Positions 1,826-50,009 of a stretch of 64,000 nucleotides of DNA are shown in pieces (the stretch's first letter is position 1; each line of letters begins with the position of its first letter). The notes under the pieces are model-generated. The model did not search any database. It worked only from the letters and a program-made list of their open reading frames with translations, and had not been told where the DNA came from. Position numbers and translations under genes: made by a program. Source of the DNA: Bacteroidales bacterium (GTDB taxonomy: Bacteria; Bacteroidota; Bacteroidia; Bacteroidales; VadinHA17); contig JAAYKX010000024.1 of NCBI GenBank assembly GCA_012522155.1, positions 1,893-65,892 of the forward strand, written 5' to 3'.

Positions 1826-3439
1826 ATGGCAAGTCTGAAGCTTTTACTCGGATTAATTCCCTCTACCACAAAACTGGAGCTTAATGAAAAAGCCTTAACT
1901 GATGAATATGAAAAACTCAGGGCTTTTACGAATTCCGAACTCCTTTCCAGATACAATACACTGAACGATCTGATCAATTCCACGGATTTCCTCCGGAAGA
2001 AAAAGGAAATTGAATCACTTCAGTACAAGAATTCCGAAGAATATGTCAGGGAAAAAGAATTCTTTTCCCTGCAGAAATCCAGGGATATTGTGCTTTATTT
2101 CAAAACTGTTGCAGGAAATGCCTTAAAAAAGTTCCGTGAGATGGACGGGTCTGAACGGATCAGGGATTATGAATCCCTCGGGGAATATATCGACTCCTTT
2201 GAATTCAAGCAAAAGCAGAAAATGAAACCTGTCACTTTCAAGGATTCCGATGAGTACCGTAAGTTCCGCGAATATAAAAATCTGAAAAAGGATACCGAAA
2301 TAAAATCCTATTACAAGGCTGCTGCTAAGGGAGAAGCAACAAAATCCGCAGCTGTTGAAAAATTTGAAGAACTCAAGGCATTTATAAACAGTCCGGAATT
2401 CCTCAGGAAAAAGAAAATGAAACCTGTTACATTCAGGGATACTCCTGAATATCAAAAGCTTCTTGAACACAGGAGACTCAAAAAGAGTCCGGAAATAAAG
2501 GATTTTTATAAATTCCGGGATTCAAAGGAATATGCCAATTTCCTGAATATTGACGGTTCACAGAAGCTTGCCAGATACAATGAACTCAAGGATTATGTTG
2601 CAGGCTCTGAATTCAGGGATAAAAAGAACTACTATCTCGATAAGAAGAGATTTGAAAAAACGGAAATGTTTAAAAATATCGAGGAGTTCAACGCCCTGAA
2701 AAAGAACGAAGATATTGTATGGTACTTCAAAGTGAAGGACTCCGACAAATTCGACCTTATCAAAAACAGGGAACTCATTTTCTGTGATGAATTTGACGGT
2801 GACAGACTTGATACCACCAAATGGCTTACCAATTATTACTGGGGCGACAAGCTTCTTCACGAAAGATATTCTGTTGAAGGTGATCTTCAGGCATATACTG
2901 AAAAAGAAAATTTTGAGATCCGTAACAGTCTGCTGAAAATCATCACAAAACCACAAAAATATTCCGGTAAAATATGGACCCCGACTGACGGTTTCAGGCC
3001 GAATGAATTCAATTACACTTCAGGTATTGTCAATACCGGTAAAAGTTTTCGCCATCAGTACGGTATTTTTTCAGCCAAAATCAAGCTGGGCAACCCCGCA
3101 GCAAAAAATGCATTCTGGATGCTTGCCGATAAAATAACCCCTCATATTGATGTGTGCCGTACCTCAAACGGGAAAGTCCAGTTTGACTACTTTCCCTCAG
3201 TCAGTAAAATATTCAGGTCCGTGGCCGGCTCCAGATACGCCAGGGATTTTTACATATATACCCTTGAATGGACCCCGGACAAGCTTGTCTGGAAAATAAA
3301 CGGCGCTGTTGCATTTAAATGTACCACGGATGTTCCACAGGAGCCTATGTATATTTTGTTTTCCGGTGGACTGGACAAAGCTCTCAACAGCATGACATCC
3401 ATGGAAATTGACTGGGTGAGGGTATACAAACCAGTTTAA
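1826..3439 (+). CDS. GH16-fold (concanavalin-A-like) protein with N-terminal basic repeat region; catalytic motif not conserved
   Basis: The C-terminal ~230 aa show GH16 landmarks: DEFDGDRLDTTKW, YTSGIVNTGKSF, YGIFSAKIKL, NAFWML, EIDWVRVYK. The N-terminal ~300 aa hold about 5 diverged ~45-aa repeats (FxxKKKMKPVTF[KR]D..EY.K...K..EI..[FY]YK). No signal peptide is present. Confidence 0.75.
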   Translation: MASLKLLLGLIPSTTKLELNEKALTDEYEKLRAFTNSELLSRYNTLNDLINSTDFLRKKKEIESLQYKNSEEYVREKEFFSLQKSRDIVLYFKTVAGNALKKFREMDGSERIRDYESLGEYIDSFEFKQKQKMKPVTFKDSDEYRKFREYKNLKKDTEIKSYYKAAAKGEATKSAAVEKFEELKAFINSPEFLRKKKMKPVTFRDTPEYQKLLEHRRLKKSPEIKDFYKFRDSKEYANFLNIDGSQKLARYNELKDYVAGSEFRDKKNYYLDKKRFEKTEMFKNIEEFNALKKNEDIVWYFKVKDSDKFDLIKNRELIFCDEFDGDRLDTTKWLTNYYWGDKLLHERYSVEGDLQAYTEKENFEIRNSLLKIITKPQKYSGKIWTPTDGFRPNEFNYTSGIVNTGKSFRHQYGIFSAKIKLGNPAAKNAFWMLADKITPHIDVCRTSNGKVQFDYFPSVSKIFRSVAGSRYARDFYIYTLEWTPDKLVWKINGAVAFKCTTDVPQEPMYILFSGGLDKALNSMTSMEIDWVRVYKPV

Positions 3440-3517
3440 TCCGTTACCTGCAGATACAGAAAAAACCTGATCCGTGCTACAGGCACCGGACACAGGTATC
3501 TGTCAGATTTTCCCGTT

Positions 3518-3790
3518 CATACCACAATTGCGCCGGGATTCATGCATACCATAGCGACGGGACTAACACATACAATCACGCCGGAATTCATGGATACTAT
3601 CACGACTGGACTACTACATACAAACCGACGTAACTACCACATACAAACCACCGGGACTACCGCATAAAATAACGCCGCAACTCCTGCATACAATCATGCC
3701 GGCGCTACCACATACAATTGCGACGGGACTACCGCATAAAATAACGCCGCAACTCCTGCATAAAAACCGCTGACCGGAACTATTTCCGGA
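3518..3790. repeat. non-coding tandem array, ~11 units of 23-27 bp (consensus CATACAATnnCGnCGGGACTACCn)
   Basis: Units start at 3518, 3545, 3569, 3593, 3617, 3640, 3663, 3687, 3711, 3735 and 3759. The units at 3663 and 3735 are identical (CATAAAATAACGCCGCAACTCCTG), which gives a 72-bp higher-order period. The array ends in the inverted repeat CCGGAA-CTAT-TTCCGG (3774-3789). Confidence 0.85.
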
Positions 3791-3877
3791 TATCACAGCA
3801 GGGCACAGTCAAGCAGAAATCTGTTTTTTTCTGTAACTTTTTACAATTTTATACGTCTTTGAAACGTAATTCTGCCT

Positions 3878-4363
3878 ATGACCGCAAAGGAATTTAACAA
3901 AGCCGTTGACGAATATTCCGATTCCCTGTATCGTTTTATTCTTGCCGGTATAAGGGATGAAGAACGGGCAGGGGATATCGTTCAGGACACTTATGAAAAA
4001 CTGTGGAGAAATGTAACAGAACTTGATTATACCGTAGTAAAATCCTGGATTTTTTCAACTGCATACCATGGAATGATCGATATTATCCGGAAAGAAAGAA
4101 GAATGACAGTACTTGAAGACAAACACACGGCTGAGCTTGCACACGAGACCCAGTACAGTGATCTTAATGCCATTCTTCATAAAGCTCTGGAACGACTTCC
4201 TGAAAATCAGAGATCCGTAATCCTTCTTCGCGATTATGAAGGTTATTCCTACAGGGAGATAGGGAAGATAACGGGCATGAGTGAAGCCCAGGTCAAAATA
4301 AATATTTACAGGGGAAGGATAGCCCTGAAAAATTTTATTGGAAAGATTGAAACCGTATTGTAA
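3878..4363 (+). CDS. RNA polymerase ECF-type sigma-70 factor
   Basis: 161 aa. Region 2 (DIVQDTYEKLW...WIFSTAYHGMIDIIRKERR) and region 4 (LPENQRSVILLRDYEGYSYREIGKITGMSEAQVKINIYRGR) are recognisable. Confidence 0.9.
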   Translation: MTAKEFNKAVDEYSDSLYRFILAGIRDEERAGDIVQDTYEKLWRNVTELDYTVVKSWIFSTAYHGMIDIIRKERRMTVLEDKHTAELAHETQYSDLNAILHKALERLPENQRSVILLRDYEGYSYREIGKITGMSEAQVKINIYRGRIALKNFIGKIETVL

Positions 4364-4365
4364 GC

Positions 4366-5661
4366 ATGCAACCCGACAGATCAGAATATGAGAAATGGAT
4401 TGCCGACTGGCTCGCGGGAAATCTGGACAGGGACCGGAAAAAACAGTTTGATGAATTCCTTGCCGCCAATCCTGCTTTAAAGGAAGAAGCTGAATCATTG
4501 TTATTAACAGCTGTCGTACCCGATAATATTTCTTTTCCCCGAAAGAAGCTTCTTAGAAAAAGCCCTGAAGATTTTACTGCCTCACATGTCGAATATCTTT
4601 CCGTTGCATATCTCGAAAATGATCTCTCTCCTGAACAAAAAGAGGAACTTAATATCTGCCTGGCCAAAAACCCGGAACTCCGCCTTCTTTCTGAGTCAGT
4701 CAGAAAAACAAAGCTCAGCCCTCCCCTTGTCAGTTACAGTTTCAAAAAGCATCTGAAGAGAAAAACAAGGGCAGGAAAGATCCTGAGACTTTCTTCAGCG
4801 GGATTAAGTGCAGCAGCTGCAGTCACCCTGCTTGTAATGAGTTCTGTTTTCATAGTAAGGTATATGACGGAAAAGAAAAATATTTCCGGCACAGCAGATC
4901 TTATTGTCACGGATGGACAGCAACAGGCGCTGAGACAGGAACAAACGGAGGGACGGGAACTGCCGCTGATGCAGGAACAATCCAAAGAACAGCAACAGGC
5001 GCTGAGACAGGAACAAACGGAGGGACGGGAACTGCCGCTGATGCAGGAACAATCCAAAGAACAGCAACAGGCGCTGAGACAGGAACAAACGGAGGGAATG
5101 CTGCAACAAGCGGAAGGGGAACTGCCGACGGAACAGGAGCATCCGGAAGGGGAGCAACCGATGAAGCAGATACAAACAGAAAAACAGCAACTATCACCGG
5201 AACAGGGGCCACCAGAACCGGGGCGGCAGGAACAGGAGCGTCCGGAAGGGAAGCTGCCGCCGGAACAGGGGTGGCCGGAAAGGCAACTGCTGGCGGGCAT
5301 TATCAGGATAGAAGACCTTCCCCGGCCCGGTGTCGAAATTATGCAGAAGCCTGACCCCGGAACCCTTATGGCTGTTTCTATACCATACCGGGAACCGCTC
5401 TATGACGGCAGGAACGGCTTTACCAGGTTTCTTGCAAGAACTTTCCGGGAAAAGATCCTCAGAGATGACAGCGGAAACGATGCTCCCATCAGAAGCTACG
5501 AAATTGCATCAGCCGGCATTAACAGCATAAGCCGGATTTTTGGACTGGAAATGTCACTTACGGGCATTACTGACTCACAGGGAGATCTGAAATCTCTCTA
5601 TTTCAGTTCAAGGCTCGTGAAATTCAATGCTCCGGTAAAAAAAGACGAATCATTACAGTAA
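4366..5661 (+). CDS. putative membrane-anchored anti-sigma factor with E/Q/P-rich repeat region
   Basis: The gene starts 3 bp after the sigma stop. It has an N-terminal helical region, a single TM segment (ILRLSSAGLSAAAAVTLLVMSSVFIV) and then the repeat QQQALRQEQTEGRELPLMQEQSKE. The call rests on position and architecture only; I recognised no anti-sigma domain. Confidence 0.55.
   Translation: MQPDRSEYEKWIADWLAGNLDRDRKKQFDEFLAANPALKEEAESLLLTAVVPDNISFPRKKLLRKSPEDFTASHVEYLSVAYLENDLSPEQKEELNICLAKNPELRLLSESVRKTKLSPPLVSYSFKKHLKRKTRAGKILRLSSAGLSAAAAVTLLVMSSVFIVRYMTEKKNISGTADLIVTDGQQQALRQEQTEGRELPLMQEQSKEQQQALRQEQTEGRELPLMQEQSKEQQQALRQEQTEGMLQQAEGELPTEQEHPEGEQPMKQIQTEKQQLSPEQGPPEPGRQEQERPEGKLPPEQGWPERQLLAGIIRIEDLPRPGVEIMQKPDPGTLMAVSIPYREPLYDGRNGFTRFLARTFREKILRDDSGNDAPIRSYEIASAGINSISRIFGLEMSLTGITDSQGDLKSLYFSSRLVKFNAPVKKDESLQ
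4918..5097 (+). repeat. perfect 72-bp (24-codon) in-frame tandem repeat, 2.5 copies
   Basis: Copies at 4918-4989 and 4990-5061 are identical base for base. A third copy is identical over 5062-5097. More degenerate E/Q/P-rich repeats follow to about 5290. Confidence 0.95.
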
Positions 5662-5784
5662 CTTTTAAAGCAGCTTTACGTCTCAGCAACACGATCATTC
5701 CCTTAAAGCCATGAAAACAGCTTTAACCAGAATAAAACAAGCATATAAAAAATTTAAAAGCGGGACCGGTCCGGCGGGACACAG

Positions 5785-5901
5785 CCCGGCAAAGTCAAGC
5801 AAAACCCGTACTGCCGGAAGCAACCCGGCAAAACCAAACAGGATCAGCCCGGTGCAACACAACCCGGCAAAGTCAAACAGAACCAGCCGGCATAACCGGC
5901 C
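5785..5901. repeat. 39-bp degenerate tandem repeat, 3 copies (CCCGGCAAAGTCAA...)
   Basis: Copies start at 5785, 5824 and 5863, each beginning CCCGGCAAA. The tract lies between the anti-sigma stop (5661) and the next start (5938). Confidence 0.8.
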
Positions 5902-5937
5902 CCTTGAAACCTTTATGATACAAACACACAAAAGGAT

Positions 5938-6939
5938 ATGAAAAAATTAGTAATGATACTTGCTGCGATAATCTTCCTGGTTCAGGGATTCGGACAGAAT
6001 ATTTCATCAGCCAGGGACAGCGGTGCGGGAAAAACTGTGTCTGCTGACAGCTATGCGGGAAAAACCGTATCCGCTGACAGCAGTGATGCAGTAAGAGTGA
6101 TCCTGGGCAGAGATCTGATAAGGATTGAAGATAACCAGGAAGCTGTGAAAATCAAGGTGGGGAACAGAGGACTTACAATACTTGAATCCCTGGAGGCAGG
6201 AGAACGCAGGGTAAGTTTTGATCAGTACCACAAGAATGAAAAAGATGACCGGGAAACACTGTATGCCAGGGATTACCGGAATGATTACCGCGATGACAGA
6301 GTGATACGCCGGAAGCGTTTCAGGGGTCACTGGGCGGGTGTGGAAGCCGGGTTCAACAATTACCTGACGCCGGACAACAACTTTAATCTCCCTGAAAACA
6401 TAGATTATATGTCGCTACACTCCGGAAAATCCCGCTATTTTAATGCAAACGTGGCGCAGACAAGCCTGGGACTGACCAGGAGAATAGGCTTTGTAACCGG
6501 ACTGGGAATCAACTGGAACAACTACAGGTTTGACGGAAACAATAATATAATTAAAAAGGATAACGGGGAGATTGAAAAATATGACCCCGAACTGTTGCTG
6601 AAAAAATCCAAACTCTCAACACTGTACCTCACCCTTCCCTTTTTGCTGGAAATACAGATCCCCGCCACCTGCAGCCAGCTTAACATAGCGGCAGGACCGA
6701 TCGGCGCCGTAAAATTATATTCATATTCAAAAATGGTTTTTGATAACGGGGACAAGGTAAGGTCAGAGGATGATTTCAGTCTGAACATGCTCAGATATGG
6801 TGCCACACTGCGTATAGGATTCGGGAATTTCCAGATACACGGAACATCCTATTTCATGCCATTGTTTCAAACCGGAAAATCTCCCGGCGGGATTGACCTC
6901 TATCCCTTTGAGGTAGGACTTGCTTTTACGATAGATTAA
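5938..6939 (+). CDS. secreted protein, beta-rich C-terminal domain (possible outer-membrane beta-barrel)
   Basis: It has a signal peptide (MKKLVMILAAIIFLVQGFG), an N-terminal duplicated decapeptide AGKTVSADS[YS], and a C-terminal ~200 aa with an alternating hydrophobic/aromatic strand-like pattern. It is the third gene of the sigma/anti-sigma module. The fold call is tentative. Confidence 0.4.
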   Translation: MKKLVMILAAIIFLVQGFGQNISSARDSGAGKTVSADSYAGKTVSADSSDAVRVILGRDLIRIEDNQEAVKIKVGNRGLTILESLEAGERRVSFDQYHKNEKDDRETLYARDYRNDYRDDRVIRRKRFRGHWAGVEAGFNNYLTPDNNFNLPENIDYMSLHSGKSRYFNANVAQTSLGLTRRIGFVTGLGINWNNYRFDGNNNIIKKDNGEIEKYDPELLLKKSKLSTLYLTLPFLLEIQIPATCSQLNIAAGPIGAVKLYSYSKMVFDNGDKVRSEDDFSLNMLRYGATLRIGFGNFQIHGTSYFMPLFQTGKSPGGIDLYPFEVGLAFTID

Positions 6940-6994
6940 GCTGCCGACAGATTTAACTTCCGATAGATTTAAGCTGCCGACAGATCATACTTCC
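6930..6994. repeat. 32/33-bp tandem duplication spanning the stop codon of the 5938..6939 gene
   Basis: GATAGATTAAGCTGCCGACAGATTTAACTTCC (6930-6961) is followed by GATAGATTTAAGCTGCCGACAGATCATACTTCC (6962-6994). Confidence 0.8.
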
Positions 6995-7843: not shown

Positions 7844-10471
7844 ATGAAGTTGGTGTCAAAAATACTTAAAACTTTTGCTTTTGTCATTTCAGGAATCATG
7901 GCAGTCATGTTTGTTGCTGCAATGCTGGTACAGGACAAAGTTGCGGATATCATACTCATGTCGCTGAGTAACAATATTTCAACCAGATTTGAAACAGGCT
8001 CTGTAAAACTGTCCTTCATCAGAAGATTCCCCAAAGCATCCCTTGACCTGAAAAACGTAATAGTCCGCTCATCACCCGGTTTTGACAAAAAATGTTTCGG
8101 CAAAACGGATACCGACACCCTTCTGGCAGCTGGATCCGTAAGCATGGAATTCAGGATCCGGAATATTATAAACGGCTACTATAACATCGAAAGGATTGGT
8201 GTCAGGAACGCGCGGCTCAAAATACTTACTGACACATCGGGAATGGTTAATTATGAAATAAGAACCGTAAACCCGGCCGCGGCGGGCAATGATCTTGTCA
8301 TAAACCTTGATGGCATCAGGCTCAGCAATGTCATAACCCTTTATGACAACCGTGCAACAAAACTGCTTATTTCCGGCATCATGGAAAACGGAAGGATCAA
8401 AAGCAGAATCACGGGAAACAATATTGACTTTACCGGTAAAGGCGATCTGAAAATAGAGATGTTTTCACTTCATGATTTCAGAATCAGCAAAACCATCAAT
8501 TCCAGTGTGAATGTAATTCTGAACAAGTCGGATGAAGGAATCAGATTTGAAAGAAGCAGCCTTGTTTTCGATGATAATAAACTCAGCATGGACGGATTTG
8601 TTTCTGCTGACAATGACCTGGATATTTCAGTAAAAGGGGAAAATATAGATATAGCAAACCTTAAAGGCTATCTGCCTGACAGTTTTCTGGAAAAAGTAAC
8701 TGAATATAATCCCCGGGGAATGCTGGAACTGGACGGTACAATAAAGGGAAAGGTCTCAGGAACTGTCAAGCCGGGAATAAACATCGCCTTCTCCCTGAGA
8801 AACGGCAATGTCAGCTACAGGCCCTCATCAGCCCGCATTAATAATGTTTCATTCGACGGCTCCTTTACAAACGGAACAGGGATGACATCCCGGACCAGCT
8901 CACTGAAGATAGGCAACTTCAGGGGAAGGCTGGGATCATCGGACTATACCGGATCACTTGTCCTTTCCGATTTCACTTCCCCCAACTGCATCCTGGAACT
9001 GAAAGGAAGGCTCATAGCGGCGGAAATAGTGGAATTCTTTAATCTGAATGCAATTTCCGCAGCCGAAGGCTCTGTTGACATGCATATCAGAACAAAAGGA
9101 AAAATTGCAGGAAATAAAAATTTCAGCCTGGCAGACTTTCTTGATATAATCAATGAAGGAAGTCTTGGATTCAACTCCTTTGGCATGGACCTCAGCAGGG
9201 ACGGAACAAGAATAGGAGACGTACGCGGACAGATTCTCTTTTCTTCCAATATTACTGCAAAAGACCTGGACCTCACATATAAAGGACAAAGGATTAGGAT
9301 TAACGGCAGTTTTACCGGCCTGCCACAATGGGCAGCAGGTAAAAACACCACCCTAACAGCTTCGGGTTCACTGAGCTCTGACAGGATTATCCTTGATTCA
9401 TTCTTTCCGGGAAAAGTCCGCCAGGTCAGCGAAGACGAAAAAAAGCCCTTCCCATTTCCTGAAAATATAATTCTTGATCTGGCTTTCAGTATCGGTGATT
9501 TCGGCTATAAGGATTTCAGGGCACGGAATGTTTCCGGAATCATGAATTACAAGCCTCGAATTATGAATTTTAATAGCTTGAGTATAAATTCATTGGATGG
9601 GTTTATCTCAGGTAATGGTTATTTTCTTCAAAACGCTGACAGATCCCATATCCTGAAAGGTGATTTCAGTCTTGAAAAGATTAACGTCAAAAAAACCTTT
9701 ACTGTTTTCAACAATTTCGGTCAGAATTTCATCCGTGATGAAAACCTGGAAGGCCTCCTGTCAGGATCACTGGCTATTCTTATCCCGATGGATACGGAAC
9801 TTAAGGCCTCAGTCAGAACAGTTACGGCTGAAGGAAAATATATTCTGGAACAGGGAGCCCTTCAGAATTTTGAACCTGTCAGGAAACTGTCCGATTTTAT
9901 TGATATTTCAGAACTTGAAAACATTCGTTTCCAGGAACTTAAAAATGATTTTTTTATCCGGAACAATTCCCTGTATATTCCGGCCATGGATGTCAGATCA
10001 TCAGCGGCTGACCTTTCAATAAACGGCAGACACGGTTTCGATAATAAATATGAGTATCATGTAAGGATCCTTCTTTCCGAGATTCTCAGCAGGAAAGTAA
10101 CAGGGCCGAAACCGAATACAAGTGAATTCGGGGCCGTAAGGGATGACGGCCTGGGAAGGACTTCCCTTCTTCTGAAGATAGAGGACAGGGAGGGGGAGCC
10201 CAGGGTAAGCTATGACGCCAGAGCGGCTAGTTCCCAGATAAAGAATGATATCAAAAAGGAGAGGCAGTCCCTGAAATCTATACTTAAGGAGGAATACGGA
10301 TGGTTCGGTCATGATACCACAGCTCCGGCAAAACCCTCCGCACCGGGAACTCCCAGGTTCAGGGTGACCTGGGAAGAGGCTGCCATAAGTGACACCGCAG
10401 ACAGCCAACCTGAGGAAGTCCGGCAGGAGAGGCAGGAATTAAGAATAAGGGATATTCTGAAAAAAAGATAG
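7844..10471 (+). CDS. AsmA-family protein (N-terminal membrane anchor, large periplasmic domain)
   Basis: ~875 aa with an N-terminal TM (ILKTFAFVISGIMAVMFVAAML) and a long beta-rich repetitive body with an AsmA-like C-terminal region. I moved the start from the track's TTG (7799) to the ATG at 7844. Confidence 0.65.
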   Translation: MKLVSKILKTFAFVISGIMAVMFVAAMLVQDKVADIILMSLSNNISTRFETGSVKLSFIRRFPKASLDLKNVIVRSSPGFDKKCFGKTDTDTLLAAGSVSMEFRIRNIINGYYNIERIGVRNARLKILTDTSGMVNYEIRTVNPAAAGNDLVINLDGIRLSNVITLYDNRATKLLISGIMENGRIKSRITGNNIDFTGKGDLKIEMFSLHDFRISKTINSSVNVILNKSDEGIRFERSSLVFDDNKLSMDGFVSADNDLDISVKGENIDIANLKGYLPDSFLEKVTEYNPRGMLELDGTIKGKVSGTVKPGINIAFSLRNGNVSYRPSSARINNVSFDGSFTNGTGMTSRTSSLKIGNFRGRLGSSDYTGSLVLSDFTSPNCILELKGRLIAAEIVEFFNLNAISAAEGSVDMHIRTKGKIAGNKNFSLADFLDIINEGSLGFNSFGMDLSRDGTRIGDVRGQILFSSNITAKDLDLTYKGQRIRINGSFTGLPQWAAGKNTTLTASGSLSSDRIILDSFFPGKVRQVSEDEKKPFPFPENIILDLAFSIGDFGYKDFRARNVSGIMNYKPRIMNFNSLSINSLDGFISGNGYFLQNADRSHILKGDFSLEKINVKKTFTVFNNFGQNFIRDENLEGLLSGSLAILIPMDTELKASVRTVTAEGKYILEQGALQNFEPVRKLSDFIDISELENIRFQELKNDFFIRNNSLYIPAMDVRSSAADLSINGRHGFDNKYEYHVRILLSEILSRKVTGPKPNTSEFGAVRDDGLGRTSLLLKIEDREGEPRVSYDARAASSQIKNDIKKERQSLKSILKEEYGWFGHDTTAPAKPSAPGTPRFRVTWEEAAISDTADSQPEEVRQERQELRIRDILKKR

Positions 10472-10476
10472 TTTTA

Positions 10477-11625
10477 TTGAATACATACCGGCATAAGATA
10501 CCATGGATGTTTTTCCTTTTCCTGTTCGCAATACTTACAGGTACGGGATCCCTGATCTATACACGCTTCCTTGTTGAGACGCTGAAGAATGAAGAAAGAA
10601 AAAAGGTTGAACTGTGGGCTGAGGCAACAATGCTGATAAGCATTGCCGATACGGGTCAGGACATAGAATTCCTTTCATCAATAATAGAAAACAATATAAC
10701 CATCCCGGTAATCCTTGCGGATGAGGCCGACAGTATTATCAGTTCGGGCAATTTTGATGAAAAAAGACTGCGGGACAGGGATTATCTCAACTCACAGCTA
10801 CAGAAGATACGCAGAAAGAACAGTCCTATTGAAATTGATCTGGGAGCCGGTCATATTAATCGTATCTACTACAAAGACAGTATTATACTGACACAGCTTA
10901 TTTACTATCCATATATTCAGACAGGGATAATAATACTATTCATCCTGGTGGCATTCCTTGCTTTCAGGGCTTCCCGGAAGGCTGAAAACAACAAGGTATG
11001 GGTAAGTATGTCGAAAGAGACTGCCCATCAGCTTGGAACACCGGTTTCCTCCCTGGCAGGCTGGGTTGAAATACTTCAGCAGGATCATCCCGGCTTGTCC
11101 ATATCAAGGGAAATTGCACTCGACGTGGAAAGGCTCGAAAAAATTACAGGCCGCTTCTCCGGGATAGGATCCCGCCCCTCCCTGAAGGACGAAAATCTTA
11201 CTGCCATAATCCTGCGGACCATCGAATACCTGAAATCCCGGACTTCCTCCAAGGTGAGCTTTGTTTTTGATTCCGACCCTGCTGCTGCAGTCACACTGCC
11301 TCTTAACACTCCTCTTTTTGAATGGGTCATTGAAAATATTTCAAAAAATTCAATAGATGCCATGGAAGGCAGCGGCGTTATTACCTACCGGATATCAGAA
11401 AACGATGCCAATGTAATAGTTGACATAAGCGACACGGGTAAGGGAATACCCAAAAGGGTGTTCAAAAAGATTTTCAGTCCGGGATACACAACAAAGCAAA
11501 GGGGCTGGGGCCTTGGACTGTCGCTTACCAAAAGGATAGTAGAAGAGTTTCACAACGGAAGGATTTATGTCAGGCATTCAGAGCCAGGCATAGGTTCAGC
11601 TATAAGAATAGTTTTAAACAAATGA
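10477..11625 (+). CDS. sensor histidine kinase
   Basis: Two TM segments, an H-box ETAHQLGTPVSSLAGW, an N-box ENISKNSIDAM, G-boxes DTGKGIP and GWGLGLSL. The track start is a TTG; an alternative ATG lies at 10507. Confidence 0.85.
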   Translation: MNTYRHKIPWMFFLFLFAILTGTGSLIYTRFLVETLKNEERKKVELWAEATMLISIADTGQDIEFLSSIIENNITIPVILADEADSIISSGNFDEKRLRDRDYLNSQLQKIRRKNSPIEIDLGAGHINRIYYKDSIILTQLIYYPYIQTGIIILFILVAFLAFRASRKAENNKVWVSMSKETAHQLGTPVSSLAGWVEILQQDHPGLSISREIALDVERLEKITGRFSGIGSRPSLKDENLTAIILRTIEYLKSRTSSKVSFVFDSDPAAAVTLPLNTPLFEWVIENISKNSIDAMEGSGVITYRISENDANVIVDISDTGKGIPKRVFKKIFSPGYTTKQRGWGLGLSLTKRIVEEFHNGRIYVRHSEPGIGSAIRIVLNK

Positions 11626-36992: not shown

Positions 36993-37715
36993 TTATCTGA
37001 CTGCATCGGCATATCTGCGGTTAACCGTATCCCAGTTAACAACATTCCAGAATGCCTCAACATATTCAGGTCTTCTGTTCTGATATTTCAGATAATATGC
37101 ATGTTCCCACACATCAATGGCCAGCAGTGGAATACCTTTTACAGGTGATACATCCATCAGGGGATTGTCCTGGTTGGGCGTACTTCCCACAGCCAGCTTT
37201 TTGTCGGATGTAAGATAAAGCCATGCCCATCCGCTTCCGAAACGTGTTTTGGCTGCATTGTCGAATGTTTCCTTGAACTTTTCAAAGGAACCAAAAGCTG
37301 TATTAATAGCTGCGGCAAGTTCAGGAGAAGGTCCGGAGGATCCTTTTCCAAGATTATCCCAGAAAATCACATGGTTATAGAAACCACCCCCGTTGTTTCT
37401 CACTGCATCACTGGCTTTTGACACTTCGGCAAAAATTTTCTCTATTGAAGCATTTTCCAGGTCGCTTCCCTTGACAGCAGCAATAAAATTATTGAAATAG
37501 GCTCTGTGATGCTTCTCATAGTGTATTTCCATTGTTTGTGCATCGATGTAAGGCTCCAGCGCATCATATGAATAAGGCAGAGCCGGAAATTCGTTGGTTT
37601 TAAATTCTTTCATGTTTAAAATTTTTTTGTTGATTGGTTCTTCCGCCCGGATGATTCCTGTGGTCATCGTCAGAATTATACCCGTAAATAAAAGATTCGA
37701 AAAATATTTGTTCAT
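36993..37715 (-). CDS. Fe/Mn superoxide dismutase with N-terminal signal-peptide-like extension
   Basis: LPYSYDALEPYIDAQTMEIHYEKHH and DVWEHAYYLKYQNRRPEY are present. The first 25 aa (MNKYFSNLLFTGIILTMTTGIIRAE) look like a Sec signal. An alternative internal ATG lies at 37613 (MKEFKTNEFPALPY). Confidence 0.9.
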   Translation of the reverse strand: MNKYFSNLLFTGIILTMTTGIIRAEEPINKKILNMKEFKTNEFPALPYSYDALEPYIDAQTMEIHYEKHHRAYFNNFIAAVKGSDLENASIEKIFAEVSKASDAVRNNGGGFYNHVIFWDNLGKGSSGPSPELAAAINTAFGSFEKFKETFDNAAKTRFGSGWAWLYLTSDKKLAVGSTPNQDNPLMDVSPVKGIPLLAIDVWEHAYYLKYQNRRPEYVEAFWNVVNWDTVNRRYADAVR

Positions 37716-37750
37716 CTGTCTGTAATTTAGTTTAATGATCAGGTAAGCTG

Positions 37751-37787
37751 TCCCGCTTTACCGGGAGCCTGCCCCGCTTTGCCGGGA
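37751..37787. promoter_or_regulatory. two tandem short palindromes (TCCCG-N6-CGGGA type) upstream of the SOD gene
   Basis: TCCCGCTTTACCGGGA (37751-37766) and CCCCGCTTTGCCGGGA (37772-37787) form a 21-bp direct repeat of a palindromic unit, 36-72 bp upstream of the start at 37715. Confidence 0.3.
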
Positions 37788-47844: not shown

Positions 47845-49464
47845 TCACTCAACGAACAAGGACACAAAACCAAAAGTATTACTGTTAAACAAGCCCCTGT
47901 CGCTGAGCTTCAGTTCGGGTATGACAAGCAGAGCCATAAAAGAGAGGGTCATGAACGGGGAAGACATATGACAGCCAAGGTCCCCGACGAGTCCGGACAG
48001 GAACTGATATTCAGCGGCTACCTCTTCACAGGGCCGGTCTGACATTATGCCCCCTATACTCAGCTGCATCGAACGGATCTTCCCGCCATCCGCAACAGCC
48101 AGTCCCCCTTTCAGTCTTACAAGCTCATTTATTGCATCTGTAATATCCTCATCCTTCACTCCTGCAGCTATTATATTATGACTGTCATGTGCAACGGAGG
48201 AAGCAAACGCTCCCGACCTGAGTCCGAAGCCCCTTATAAATGCAACAGAGGGAGCAGAATCTTGGTAGCGGTCCTTGACAACAATTTTTAAAATATCCGC
48301 AGAGGTATCAGATTCCAATATTTTCCCCTCCGGTGCTTCATGAATTGTTTCTTTTGTAAACAGTTCACCGTCAAAAGTATTGATCACCCTGAAAGGCAAT
48401 CCGCTGTTCTTTACAAGGATCTGTTCCCTGCTGATTTCCGAACAGAAGAACCTGTTTACAGGAGGACCGGGTTTATAGGAAAAAAGGACTTTGCCGCGAT
48501 CATATACTTTCTGACCGTTTATCCATGTTTCCTGCACATTCATTTCCTGCAGGCCGTCAACTATGATCAGATCAGCATAGTCCCCCGGCCTGAGAAGTCC
48601 GGCATCAAGCCCGTAATGTGAGACCGGATTAAGACTTGCACTTCTTATCACGTCGAAAGGATCATATCCTCCGCGGATCAGTCCTGAAACAAGCTTGTCA
48701 AGATGCCTTTCCCTCAGCATTTCCGGATGAATATCGTCACTTCCGAGCATTACCCGGGATGGATGGGTTCTGAAAAGATCCTTTAGGGCGCTGAGATTTC
48801 TGCCGGCACTTCCCTCTCGTATAATTATCTTCATTCCGAGGGATATTTTTTCAAGTGCCTCTTCCAGTGTACTGCATTCATGGTCTGTGTCAATACCGGC
48901 CCCGACATATTTTTTCAGGGCATCTCCACTGAGTCCGGGTGCATGGCCGTCTACCGGCTTGTTTAACTGCCTGGCCACGGCAATTTTTTCCAGAACCTCC
49001 CTGTTTCCATTTACAACCCCGGGATAATTCATCATTTCTGCCAGGTATTTTATACCGTCCCTCTTCAGCAATTCCCTTATTTCACTGACACCCAGGCTTG
49101 CTCCTGCTGTTTCAAAGTCTGTTGCCGGCACACATGAAGGTGCACCAAAATAAAATTTAAAAGGTGTTTTCCGCCCGTCTTCTATCATGAAATCAACACC
49201 TTCCTTACCAAGTATGTTTGCTATCTCATGAGGATCGGAAACAGTTGCTGTTGTTCCACGTGAAACGGCAGCGGCTGCAAAAGAACCGGGTGTAAGCATT
49301 GTACTTTCTATATGAATATGTGCATCAACAAGGCCGGGAAGAATATATACATCCGGCACATCCTGCTTTTCTTCAATCCGGCTTATCACGGAACCCCCGA
49401 CAACCACCTCCCCCGGATATATTCTCCGGCGGTGAATATCCACGATTTTTCCTGAAACTTTCAT
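47845..49464 (-). CDS. ade: adenine deaminase
   Basis: PGLVDAHIHIESTMLTP, DGHAPG and DHE motifs. I set the start at the ATG at 49464 (MKVSGKIVDI) rather than the track's 49512. Confidence 0.88.
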   Translation of the reverse strand: MKVSGKIVDIHRRRIYPGEVVVGGSVISRIEEKQDVPDVYILPGLVDAHIHIESTMLTPGSFAAAAVSRGTTATVSDPHEIANILGKEGVDFMIEDGRKTPFKFYFGAPSCVPATDFETAGASLGVSEIRELLKRDGIKYLAEMMNYPGVVNGNREVLEKIAVARQLNKPVDGHAPGLSGDALKKYVGAGIDTDHECSTLEEALEKISLGMKIIIREGSAGRNLSALKDLFRTHPSRVMLGSDDIHPEMLRERHLDKLVSGLIRGGYDPFDVIRSASLNPVSHYGLDAGLLRPGDYADLIIVDGLQEMNVQETWINGQKVYDRGKVLFSYKPGPPVNRFFCSEISREQILVKNSGLPFRVINTFDGELFTKETIHEAPEGKILESDTSADILKIVVKDRYQDSAPSVAFIRGFGLRSGAFASSVAHDSHNIIAAGVKDEDITDAINELVRLKGGLAVADGGKIRSMQLSIGGIMSDRPCEEVAAEYQFLSGLVGDLGCHMSSPFMTLSFMALLVIPELKLSDRGLFNSNTFGFVSLFVE

Positions 49465-49554: not shown

Positions 49555-49945
49555 TGCATTTTCCCGGTATAATCTGTTCTTCGGCACAAAGTCCGGACAG
49601 AAGAATATTTCCGAACCGCTACTGCGGAAACACTGATTCCATGCTCAATGCCCCTGAAGAACCAAAATTTCCAGACCAGTACTCCGGAAGAAATAACTTC
49701 AGGCCCTGTGTCCCGGAAGAATCAAATTTTGGAACCACTACTGCGGAAGCATTGATTCCAGGCACAATGCCCCTGAAGAATCAAACTTCCAAACCAGTAC
49801 TCCGGAAGAAATAACTTCCGGCCCGATGCCCCGGAAGTATAAATTTCCGAACGAATACAAAGGAAGGATATATTCCCGCATAGTGCTTCGGAGAGACCAA
49901 ATTACGCAGCAATGCCCCGGAAAAATCAATTTCCTGAATAGCACT
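49555..49945. repeat. non-coding array of ~13 degenerate ~30-bp units, most containing a GGAA..TTCC / CCGGAAG..CTTCCGG inverted repeat; 119-bp higher-order repeat
   Basis: 49621-49739 and 49740-49858 align at roughly 85-90% over the first ~85 nt, so each higher-order copy holds 4 units. The best unit, TCCGGAAGAAATAACTTCCGG (49801-49821), has a perfect 7-bp stem. Confidence 0.85.
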
Positions 49946-49985: not shown

Positions 49986-50009
49986 AAAATGTTCCACGTG
50001 GAACATTTT
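49986..50009. terminator. 24-bp perfect palindrome AAAATGTTCCAC|GTGGAACATTTT overlapping the mnmG stop codon; probable terminator
   Basis: A perfect 12-bp arm pair with A/T-rich outer ends gives a U-tract in either orientation. The mnmG stop is at 50008-50010. Confidence 0.5.

Follow-up and report, generated by a model that had tools for sequence, protein, structure and literature searches.

The stretch of DNA analysed here, 64 kb from an uncultured Bacteroidales bacterium in anaerobic-digester material (hereafter the window), contains a gene module that encodes an extracytoplasmic function (ECF) sigma factor, a putative anti-sigma factor and an outer-membrane barrel protein. Five tandem-repeat tracts, numbered i to v, lie in and between these genes. 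The locus is a conserved, functional Bacteroidales ECF module, and its repeat cluster reflects ordinary repeat expansion that broke out locally in one lineage, not an element of a novel type. All comparator sequences are metagenome assemblies and were compared as assembled contigs rather than as reads. A scan of species-representative genomes gave 46 related loci, all in metagenome-assembled genomes (MAGs) of uncultured Bacteroidales or of the Rikenellaceae type. The promoter motif was examined in 31 loci, and Tandem Repeats Finder (TRF) was run on 37 orthologous modules from other species.

TRF, applied to the whole window at a score of at least 50, returns nine merged tracts in 64 kb. Tract i sits between the stop codon of a gene for a protein resembling glycoside hydrolase family 16 (GH16-like; stop at 3439) and a conserved palindrome followed by the promoter P1; the sigma gene starts at 3878. 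The original prediction, made from the sequence alone, had placed some 11 units of 24 bp ‘directly upstream’ of the sigma gene. The non-coding array is there, and the wording is slightly loose, as its 3′ end lies ∼70 nt before the −35 element of P1. Tract ii spans 4909–5283 as a whole, wholly inside the segment of the anti-sigma protein that is predicted to be a disordered tether. Its perfect in-frame 72-bp repeat, found as proposed, is followed by degenerate 30–36-bp units encoding Glu, Gln and Pro (E/Q/P) up to ∼5283; sub-periods of 36 and 18 bp run from 4909, and TRF reports a further 15-bp array at 5196–5247. The copy number of the 72-bp unit is a lower bound, because small-k assemblies break inside this perfect repeat; they also break just inside the start of the barrel gene.

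Tract iii is the weakest of the five. TRF does not report it even at a score of 30, and a direct-repeat search recovers three copies at 39-bp spacing with 67–78% identity (5758–5884), inside a lineage-specific insertion of ∼206 bp. The proposed 39-bp tract is nonetheless real, because a sister lineage lacks exactly 78 bp, or two units, at this place. The predicted in-frame repeat in the N-terminus of the secreted protein (tract iv) lies just past the signal peptide, in the disordered tail of the barrel protein, and the predicted 32/33-bp duplication across the stop codon (tract v) begins 8 nt ahead of the barrel gene stop. As had been claimed, the tracts are unrelated: BLAST finds no sequence that they have in common with one another or with the rest of the window. 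All unit lengths (24, 72, 39, 30 and 33 bp) are multiples of three. All five tracts lie clear of the promoter elements, the folded domains and the barrel. The positions and descriptions in the original prediction thus prove essentially correct; coordinates are collected in Table 1.

Table 1. Genes, putative promoters and repeat tracts of the ECF module and its upstream neighbour (positions in the window)
Feature	Position	Strand	Basis or remark
GH16-like gene, upstream neighbour of the module	1826–3439	+	Pfam Glyco_hydro_16, E 7e-9
Tract i, 24-bp non-coding array (48-bp super-period), ∼10–11 units	3524–3765	.	TRF, 67–80% matches
P1, putative autoregulated ECF promoter, GTAAC-N16-CGTC	3833–3857	+	Motif in 31/31 loci
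ECF sigma factor gene, 161 aa	3878–4363	+	Pfam Sigma70_r2 and Sigma70_r4_2
Putative anti-sigma gene, 431 aa	4366–5661	+	No Pfam match; AlphaFold2 architecture
Tract ii, perfect 72 bp × 2.5, in frame in the anti-sigma gene	4917–5097	+	TRF, 100% matches
P2, putative ECF promoter for the barrel gene	5658–5682	+	Motif in 31/31 loci
Candidate upstream open reading frame, 76 codons	5711–5941	+	Conserved ATG start; ends in ATGA overlapping the barrel gene start
Tract iii, degenerate 39 bp × 3, barrel gene 5′ leader downstream of P2	5758–5900	+	Direct-repeat search
Outer-membrane barrel gene, 333 aa	5938–6939	+	Pfam OMP_b-brl_2 (PF13568), E 7.6e-9
Tract iv, 30 bp × 2.2, in frame (DSxAGKTVSA)	6016–6081	+	TRF, 86% matches
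Tract v, 33 bp × 2.0, from 16–17-bp subunits, stop codon and 3′ spacer	6929–6994	.	TRF

The gene order GH16-like, sigma, anti-sigma, barrel is retained almost everywhere across the 46 loci. The sigma factor, which has regions 2 and 4 only, scores 88.7 bits against TIGR02937 (sigma70-ECF; cut-off 42.9) and so falls within the ECF class. Its best NCBIfam model, sigma_PG0214/GFO_1088, gives 121.3 bits, under the curated cut-off of 130; the protein thus appears to be a close relative of the sigma_PG0214 (GFO_1088) family rather than a certified member. NCBI lists the barrel protein as a ‘PorT family protein’ (MAG proteins NLN29735-37). In its AlphaFold2 model the signal peptide is followed by a tail that is disordered up to about residue 50, then by a low-confidence small beta domain (residues 52–96), a charged linker, and a barrel at residues 129–332 with a predicted local distance difference test score (pLDDT) of 80–90; residues 12–63 score below 50. 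The best Foldseek matches of the barrel in the PDB are the 8-stranded OmpA transmembrane domain, OmpX, OmpW and Ail. These assignments agree with the original gene calls of a sigma factor, a single-pass putative anti-sigma factor and a secreted protein, the last now identified as an 8-stranded outer-membrane barrel. Ratios of non-synonymous to synonymous substitution (dN/dS) against two relatives are 0.03–0.34 across the module genes (0.03–0.12 for sigma), and all of these genes are under purifying selection. Relaxed selection was considered and set aside, as dN/dS in other lineages is similar; that of the anti-sigma gene resembles the values from eleven other species pairs.

The 431-aa protein is called a putative anti-sigma factor mainly on context and architecture. 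Its gene and the sigma gene are co-oriented with a 2-nt gap. The AlphaFold2 model, built on a 67-sequence alignment, has a helical N-terminal domain (residues 1–115, pLDDT >90), a single long helix (135–172), a stretch with pLDDT <50 (174–349), and a small alpha/beta C-terminal domain (350–427, pLDDT 70–80). Matches to the anti-sigma zinc-finger family zf-HC2 are sub-threshold, occurring in 7 of 13 family members with a best E of 0.005, and a Foldseek match to RslA is weak (probability 0.5–0.7, E about 2); a PDB profile search with the protein gave no match. The family is large, with 303 matches, and its N-domain retrieves 3,550 representatives (at 50% identity) at E ≤1e-3. Homologues are mostly 353–369 aa long, and nearly all of the 150 best representatives have 355–370 aa.

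The length of the tether is conserved in this family, unlike its sequence. Measured from the membrane helix to the C-terminal domain in 66 homologues, its median is 91 residues (interquartile range 89–91), a near-constancy that suggests a ruler-like constraint. The constraint is broken only by a clade with E/Q/P-rich tethers of 108–157 aa: 157 residues in the window (anti-sigma residues 173–330, positions 4882–5355), 145 in P0003, 136 in P0001 and 108 in P0005. Anti-sigma proteins of the clade measure 365, 367, 382, 410, 419 and 431 aa. Its members escaped the fixed length by tandem duplication at least two times independently, with 72-bp units in the window and with 78 bp × 4.3 in the relatives L014 and L068.

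The module has two putative ECF promoters. In all 31 loci the P1 motif lies ∼46 nt upstream of the sigma ATG, and its AAC-type −35 and CGT-type −10 elements have the form expected by sequence of an ECF autoregulatory promoter. The GTAAC of P2 contains the TAA stop codon of the anti-sigma gene (5659–5661), an overlap that likewise recurs in 31 of 31 loci. This conservation points to a distinct promoter, dependent on the sigma factor, that serves the barrel gene. P1 and P2 are the only matches to GTAAC-N15–17-CGTC on both strands of the 64 kb, where about one is expected by chance. From the known form of ECF promoters, we infer that the sigma factor autoregulates its own operon from P1 and, independently, activates the barrel gene through P2. 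Scans of the window for sigma-70 promoters and for terminators gave matches at the level of shuffled sequence.

The barrel gene leader also contains a candidate upstream open reading frame (ORF; 5711–5941), which is open in the sister lineage too (50 codons). A conserved small protein is not supported here: all three frames are open across tract iii, because the tract is only 7% T, and strain differences in the ORF, translated by hand rather than taken from a computed dN/dS, are 5 non-synonymous to 1 synonymous. Termination–reinitiation coupling through the ATGA overlap at the barrel start is possible. Rfam has no match anywhere in the window, and folding z-scores are unremarkable for the 5′ leader (−2.6) and the tract i region (−1.7).

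The tracts were compared at three depths. Nearest to the window are contigs L001–L004, 99.6–99.9% identical over the module, and L064, L065 and L066, 98.6–99.2% identical over their full length; together they come from 3–5 samples. The identity of L064–L066 is lowered by contig-end differences and by a divergent patch at 10.1–10.6 kb. In L064, otherwise ∼99.6% identical, this patch holds ∼85 substitutions in 450 bp (10097–10551), covers the C-terminal end of a YhdP-like gene and the next intergenic region, and looks like an imported recombination tract. Among all of these contigs, a small sample of assemblies, no copy-number change was seen at any tract covered. There are 22 strain differences between 1457 and 7178, with 6 inside tract iii and 8 inside tract v; in four other contigs tract v has the same length, rearranged into three 17-bp units instead of two 33-bp units.

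The sister lineage L005–L009, at ∼96% nucleotide identity and a synonymous divergence (dS) of 0.06–0.13, differs from the window in the tracts, which account for five of the seven indels of at least 3 bp over 5.9 kb (72, 36, 3, 30 and 78 bp). Tract i has 8 units in L005 against 11 in the window, where the extra 72 bp occupy 3652–3723. Tract ii differs by 36, 3 and 30 bp and the linker has 136 aa against 157 aa, and tract iii has one unit against three, with 78 extra bp in the window at 5771–5848. Another contig, L067/P0250, with a divergence like that of L005, carries a third 30-bp unit in tract iv, where the outgroups have one and the window two, together with a third arrangement of tract v. 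The original suggestion of a length-variable module is therefore right on the time scale of the sister lineage, from which all five tracts differ at ∼96% identity; no change of copy number appears among contigs that are 98.6–99.9% identical.

The outgroups L010, L015, L014 and L068 (dS ∼0.4) have none of the five tracts. Correspondingly, the spacer between the GH16-like and sigma genes is 221–280 bp in the outgroups (221 in L010) and 438 bp in the window; that between the anti-sigma and barrel genes is 70 bp (L010, L014) against 276 bp; the barrel protein has 323 against 333 aa, the spacer after its gene 68–69 against 117 bp, and the anti-sigma protein 365 aa (L010) against 431 aa. The next two spacers downstream are unchanged between L010 and the window (73 versus 72 and 35 versus 35, by subtraction of gene coordinates). 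In L068 a lone proto-unit of tract i occupies the corresponding position; the array thus expanded from sequence already present there. A local origin can likewise be traced for tract iv, from the duplicated unit, and for tract v, which is built from 3′-spacer sequence with AGAT microhomology at its bounds; tract ii consists of the E/Q/P-coding units of the tether itself. On this sequence comparison, all five tracts are lineage-specific gains.

Some features of the assemblies might suggest that the cluster arose in assembly or that the locus is decaying into pseudogenes. Short-read contigs end within the 72-bp repeat and close to tract iii, and in L067 (Logan SRR21159530, 1–560) the barrel gene is preceded not by the anti-sigma gene but by the 3′ end of a gene for a Gfo/Idh/MocA-like oxidoreductase. 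However, the same structures recur in ENA (k127), JGI and NCBI assemblies of different samples, every ORF is intact with its coding repeats in frame, the promoters are intact, and the dN/dS values are as low as given above. This explanation is largely refuted, and we give it hardly any weight. The L067 junction itself lies ∼40 bp upstream of the barrel ATG (window 5905–5938), at a shared 30-mer where all five L005-type contigs stop; it is either a real rearrangement at the boundary of tract iii or a mis-join at k=31.

The cluster is a local outlier, as the original prediction proposed. Five of the nine TRF tracts fall within 3.56 kb, and the scan probability that any interval of this size holds at least five is 0.004. 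The four TRF tracts outside the module start at 37748, 45744, 49593 and 53793, and only that at 49593–49846 is large, so the earlier count of two comparable tracts elsewhere was roughly right. The 37 orthologous modules contain 8 tracts in 108 kb, mostly in the first spacer or the anti-sigma linker, and their flanks 17 in 340 kb. At the rate of these modules, the Poisson probability of at least five tracts in one module is ∼1e-5, and the placement of three of five intergenic tracts in 831 bp of the intergenic DNA of the window gives p of about 0.01. These values overstate the surprise, because the cluster was picked post hoc. The idea that homologous modules elsewhere might also be repeat-rich found no support in the 37 species, so the hotspot is a property of this lineage and not of the module family. 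A genome-wide mutator is unlikely, as the rest of the window holds 4 tracts in 60 kb (0.07/kb), close to background, against 0.05/kb in the flanks of other species.

These figures also bear on chance, namely that a spacer-rich locus gathered five neutral duplications with no special local process. The module does offer three intergenic spacers and two disordered segments, ∼1.3 kb of permissive sequence; the cluster was selected by a reader seeking oddities; and unrelated repeats occur sporadically at the same two soft spots in other species, in the first spacer of L032, L039 and L059 and in the linker of L014/L068 (78 bp × 4.3). Yet the scan and Poisson probabilities, the concentration in intergenic DNA and the unchanged adjacent spacers all speak against it, and we regard chance as highly unlikely to be the whole explanation.

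Repeats of other kinds are found around this gene cluster in related genomes, and its flanks are recurrent sites of species-specific repeats. Relatives lacking the five tracts have tandem repeats of their own, of 46–69 bp, by a TetR gene or upstream of the GH16-like gene (L010 1430–1607, L015 2430–2607, L020 3316–3494, L017 3388–3498), and L032 and L039 carry opposed GTCATTC/GAATGAC arrays in the GH16–sigma spacer. The large array of the window (49593–49846; 119 bp × 2.1, with sub-periods of 59 and 29 bp) is unrelated in sequence to the five tracts and separates two genes of the − strand, with the stop of mnmG/gidA at 50008 and the start of a gene for adenine deaminase at 49464. The perfect palindrome ATGTTCCACGTGGAACAT occupies 49992–50009.

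Loss of the TetR-family gene is the one lineage-specific local change found, and it could have created a local mutational hotspot: derepression of a module on the lagging strand would bring replication–transcription conflicts, and these would raise the rate of indels and duplications. According to a review (PMC7451550), such conflicts give rise to indels that range from cis-regulatory to coding sequence; in P. gingivalis, the PG0214 sigma factor is reportedly influenced by a TetR regulator (PMC11018363). A divergent TetR gene adjoins the GH16-like gene in at least 28 related loci, among them those of the closest outgroups L010 (1615–2277), L015, L017 and L068 (1–655). Neither L005/L006 nor any part of the window has this gene, while an operator-like palindrome, TGACTGAACATTCAGTCA, is retained in the window near 1533–1550 (region 1505–1825). 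The GC skew at third codon positions, −0.10 in + strand genes versus +0.09 in − strand genes (p 5e-7), suggests that the module is head-on to replication. Against this, the loss is a single evolutionary event (n = 1), the strand assignment is drawn from skew alone, and other + strand genes of the window are repeat-poor. Head-on orientation fails as a lineage-specific cause, since repeat-free relatives share the skew pattern. Nor is TetR loss a sufficient cause: about ten more distant loci with no adjacent TetR gene have no repeat cluster, and L068 has the gene and still carries its 78 bp × 4.3 linker repeat. The correlation between TetR loss and the tracts is suggestive, and the hotspot explanation as a whole seems to us distinctly unlikely.

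The reading that we favour, and hold to be reasonably probable, is that the five tracts are independent minisatellites produced by local tandem duplication in the least-constrained segments of a conserved functional module. Each tract would have been seeded by slippage or by unequal sister-strand exchange between short direct repeats. After the first duplication, units would be gained, lost and converted more easily; as further slippage is also easier from then on, tracts would persist and grow. The sites of growth would be the spacer upstream of P1, the disordered tether, the 5′ leader of the barrel gene, the tail past the signal peptide and the 3′ spacer. Indels of one to three units, the local origin of the units and the concentration of strain differences in tracts iii and v support this account at the level of sequence. 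In the module, the anti-sigma factor would hold the sigma factor at the inner membrane, its disordered tether would cross the periplasm, and its C-terminal domain may contact the barrel protein in a Dma-like manner (Dma, dual membrane-spanning anti-sigma, is described below). Repeat growth would lengthen the tether from the family-typical 91 aa to 157 aa and the barrel mRNA leader from ∼20–45 nt to ∼250 nt, and would also alter the spacing around P1, the tail at the N-terminus of the barrel protein and the 3′ spacer. We infer that these changes in length are tolerated and are near-neutral or mildly modulatory, with no on/off switch.

Alternatively, length might be under adaptive tuning, an ‘evolutionary rheostat’ in which repeats are kept as heritable, reversible variation and a longer tether and altered expression of the barrel gene are favoured. 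The tight conservation of tether length elsewhere (median 91, interquartile range 89–91, n=66) gives length functional weight, several distinct anti-sigma lengths coexist within the E/Q/P-rich clade, every coding change is in frame in proteins still under purifying selection, and all four tract indels of at least 30 bp relative to L005 are gains in the window. The lack of copy-number polymorphism among the 98.6–99.9% identical contigs, which represent several assemblies and samples, runs counter to such tuning, as do the want of an obvious functional target for tracts iv and v and the fact that a fixed length suffices for most species. We consider adaptive tuning unlikely.

The minisatellite account has points against it in its turn. 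Permissive sequence alone falls short, as the same spacers in 37 species hold eight tracts in total, and the background density in the rest of the window means that a local, lineage-specific factor is needed beyond permissive spacers. That tether length is held at 89–91 aa while its sequence is free argues that length matters, and since length is conserved elsewhere, the 66-aa gain in the window may not be neutral. No source was found for the ∼130-bp body of the tract iii insertion. Minisatellite slippage, finally, does not account for unit lengths that are multiples of three even outside genes.

Several other origins were tried and rejected. A dispersed repeat or miniature inverted-repeat transposable element family is not supported, because BLAST of each tract against the window and ∼60 loci gave no further copies; a flank-anchored metagenome scan for tract copies returned only an already known contig. 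A common motif across the tracts also fails, CCGG and CCGGAA being simply frequent genome-wide: the window contains CCGG 536 times against ∼147 expected from base composition, and CCGGAA 84 times, a word bias of the genome that is not specific to the tracts. A decamer, CCCGGCAAAG, is common only to the tract iii units and to a 21-bp × 2 repeat of hairpin-like units, CCCGGCAAAGCGGGG, at 37748–37787 on the − strand, upstream of an Fe/Mn superoxide dismutase gene (36993–37715). The decamer pattern has 10 matches at ≤1 mismatch versus 3.8 expected, and a similar hairpin occurs in the upstream region of L067; the link is too weak to build on.

The GH16-like gene lies directly 5′ of the sigma gene in nearly all 46 loci. 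Its protein lacks an evident signal peptide, and its N-terminal half, ∼300 aa (within residues 1–320, window 1826–2800), is made up of ancient internal protein repeats (FLRKKK..KPVTF.D..EY.K....LKK..EIK.YYK) that precede the GH16 domain. Tract i is not a relic of this coding sequence or a read-through product, because the protein has 537 aa in the window, L005 and L010 alike; beyond its stop codon the window frame stays open for 75 codons, and that of L005 closes after 4. Downstream of the barrel gene lie PepE and then the YhdP-like protein.

The repeats themselves are ordinary slippage products, and their value lies in what they mark: a widespread, unannotated module of Bacteroidales in which an ECF sigma factor and an anti-sigma factor with a disordered tether are paired with a separate 8-stranded barrel whose promoter overlaps a stop codon. 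This architecture and the length-conserved tether are more valuable by-products than the repeats. The E/Q/P-rich clade supplies natural tether-length variants for asking whether length sets signalling. With five variable number tandem repeats (VNTRs) in 3.5 kb, the locus is also a practical strain marker for this digester organism, with the warning that short-read assemblies break or may collapse there. A bolder proposal is that TetR loss changed the transcription or use of the module and that growth at the five spacers now tunes tether length and barrel dosage, making a length-variable device of a module that in most related species keeps both its tether length and its distances from promoter to gene constant. 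We think this improbable; if true, it would be a natural experiment on a two-polypeptide, Dma-like sigma/anti-sigma/barrel relay that tolerates or exploits a change in a periplasm-spanning length.

Among known systems, the simple-sequence contingency loci behind phase variation in Haemophilus and Neisseria combine slippage-prone repeats with promoter-proximal or coding positions in envelope-related genes. The tracts resemble them in all of these respects. They differ in that their units are 24–78 bp long and multiples of three, and in that tract i lies upstream of the −35 element rather than between −35 and −10. Contigs from the 3–5 samples gave no sign of mixed copy numbers, either inside a population or between strains that are nearly identical. 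No repeat change that would switch expression, by a frameshift or by −35/−10 spacing, was found: the coding units of 72, 36 and 30 bp are multiples of three and so give no frame switching, and tract iii is downstream of the −10 element. Switching of the phase-variation type is not supported.

TonB and TolA carry Pro/Glu/Lys-rich spacers that span the periplasm. Like these, the tether is an E/Q/P-rich, low-complexity, repeat-built link between an inner-membrane anchor and an outer-membrane partner. Unlike them, it belongs to an anti-sigma factor and not to an energy transducer, and in the anti-sigma family the spacer is normally fixed near 91 residues.

Dma unites in a single polypeptide an anti-sigma domain with a membrane helix, an extended disordered region and an OMP_b-brl_2 barrel, and its partner is an ECF21 sigma factor (PMC10927553). 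Both systems are confined to Bacteroidota and place an ECF sigma gene next to that of a single-pass anti-sigma factor, putative in the window; the window module further shares the long disordered periplasmic region (pLDDT <50, residues 174–349) and the 8-stranded OMP_b-brl_2 outer-membrane barrel, though in a neighbouring gene. In contrast to Dma, the barrel of the window is made as an independent polypeptide that has a signal peptide, an N-terminal beta domain and an ECF promoter to itself, and the anti-sigma factor ends in a small alpha/beta domain rather than a barrel, at a stop (5661) conserved in 31 of 31 loci. No barrel was found in the six longest (471–613 aa) of the 150 best N-domain representatives, which were the six scanned. 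Since the barrel is unfused and Dma is one polypeptide, we do not count the module among the Dma family.

The closest parallel to the tracts is with bacterial VNTR or minisatellite loci, such as the MIRU-type typing loci; the Treponema pallidum repeat genes arp and tp0470 are examples of the VNTR type (10.1101/2022.08.02.502389). In both, units of tens of bp lie between genes and within disordered segments of envelope proteins, the number of copies varies from one close lineage to another, and coding units stay in frame. The tracts depart from the usual VNTR loci in being five unrelated tracts in one 3.5-kb regulatory module, all gained in one lineage, and in having no copy-number variation among the near-identical strains examined. 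They nevertheless have the defining features of the class: head-to-tail units of at least 10 bp, in numbers that differ between related genomes, with 11, 8 and 0–1 units across lineages in tract i, 3, 1 and 0 in tract iii, 2, 3 and 1 in tract iv, and three arrangements of tract v.

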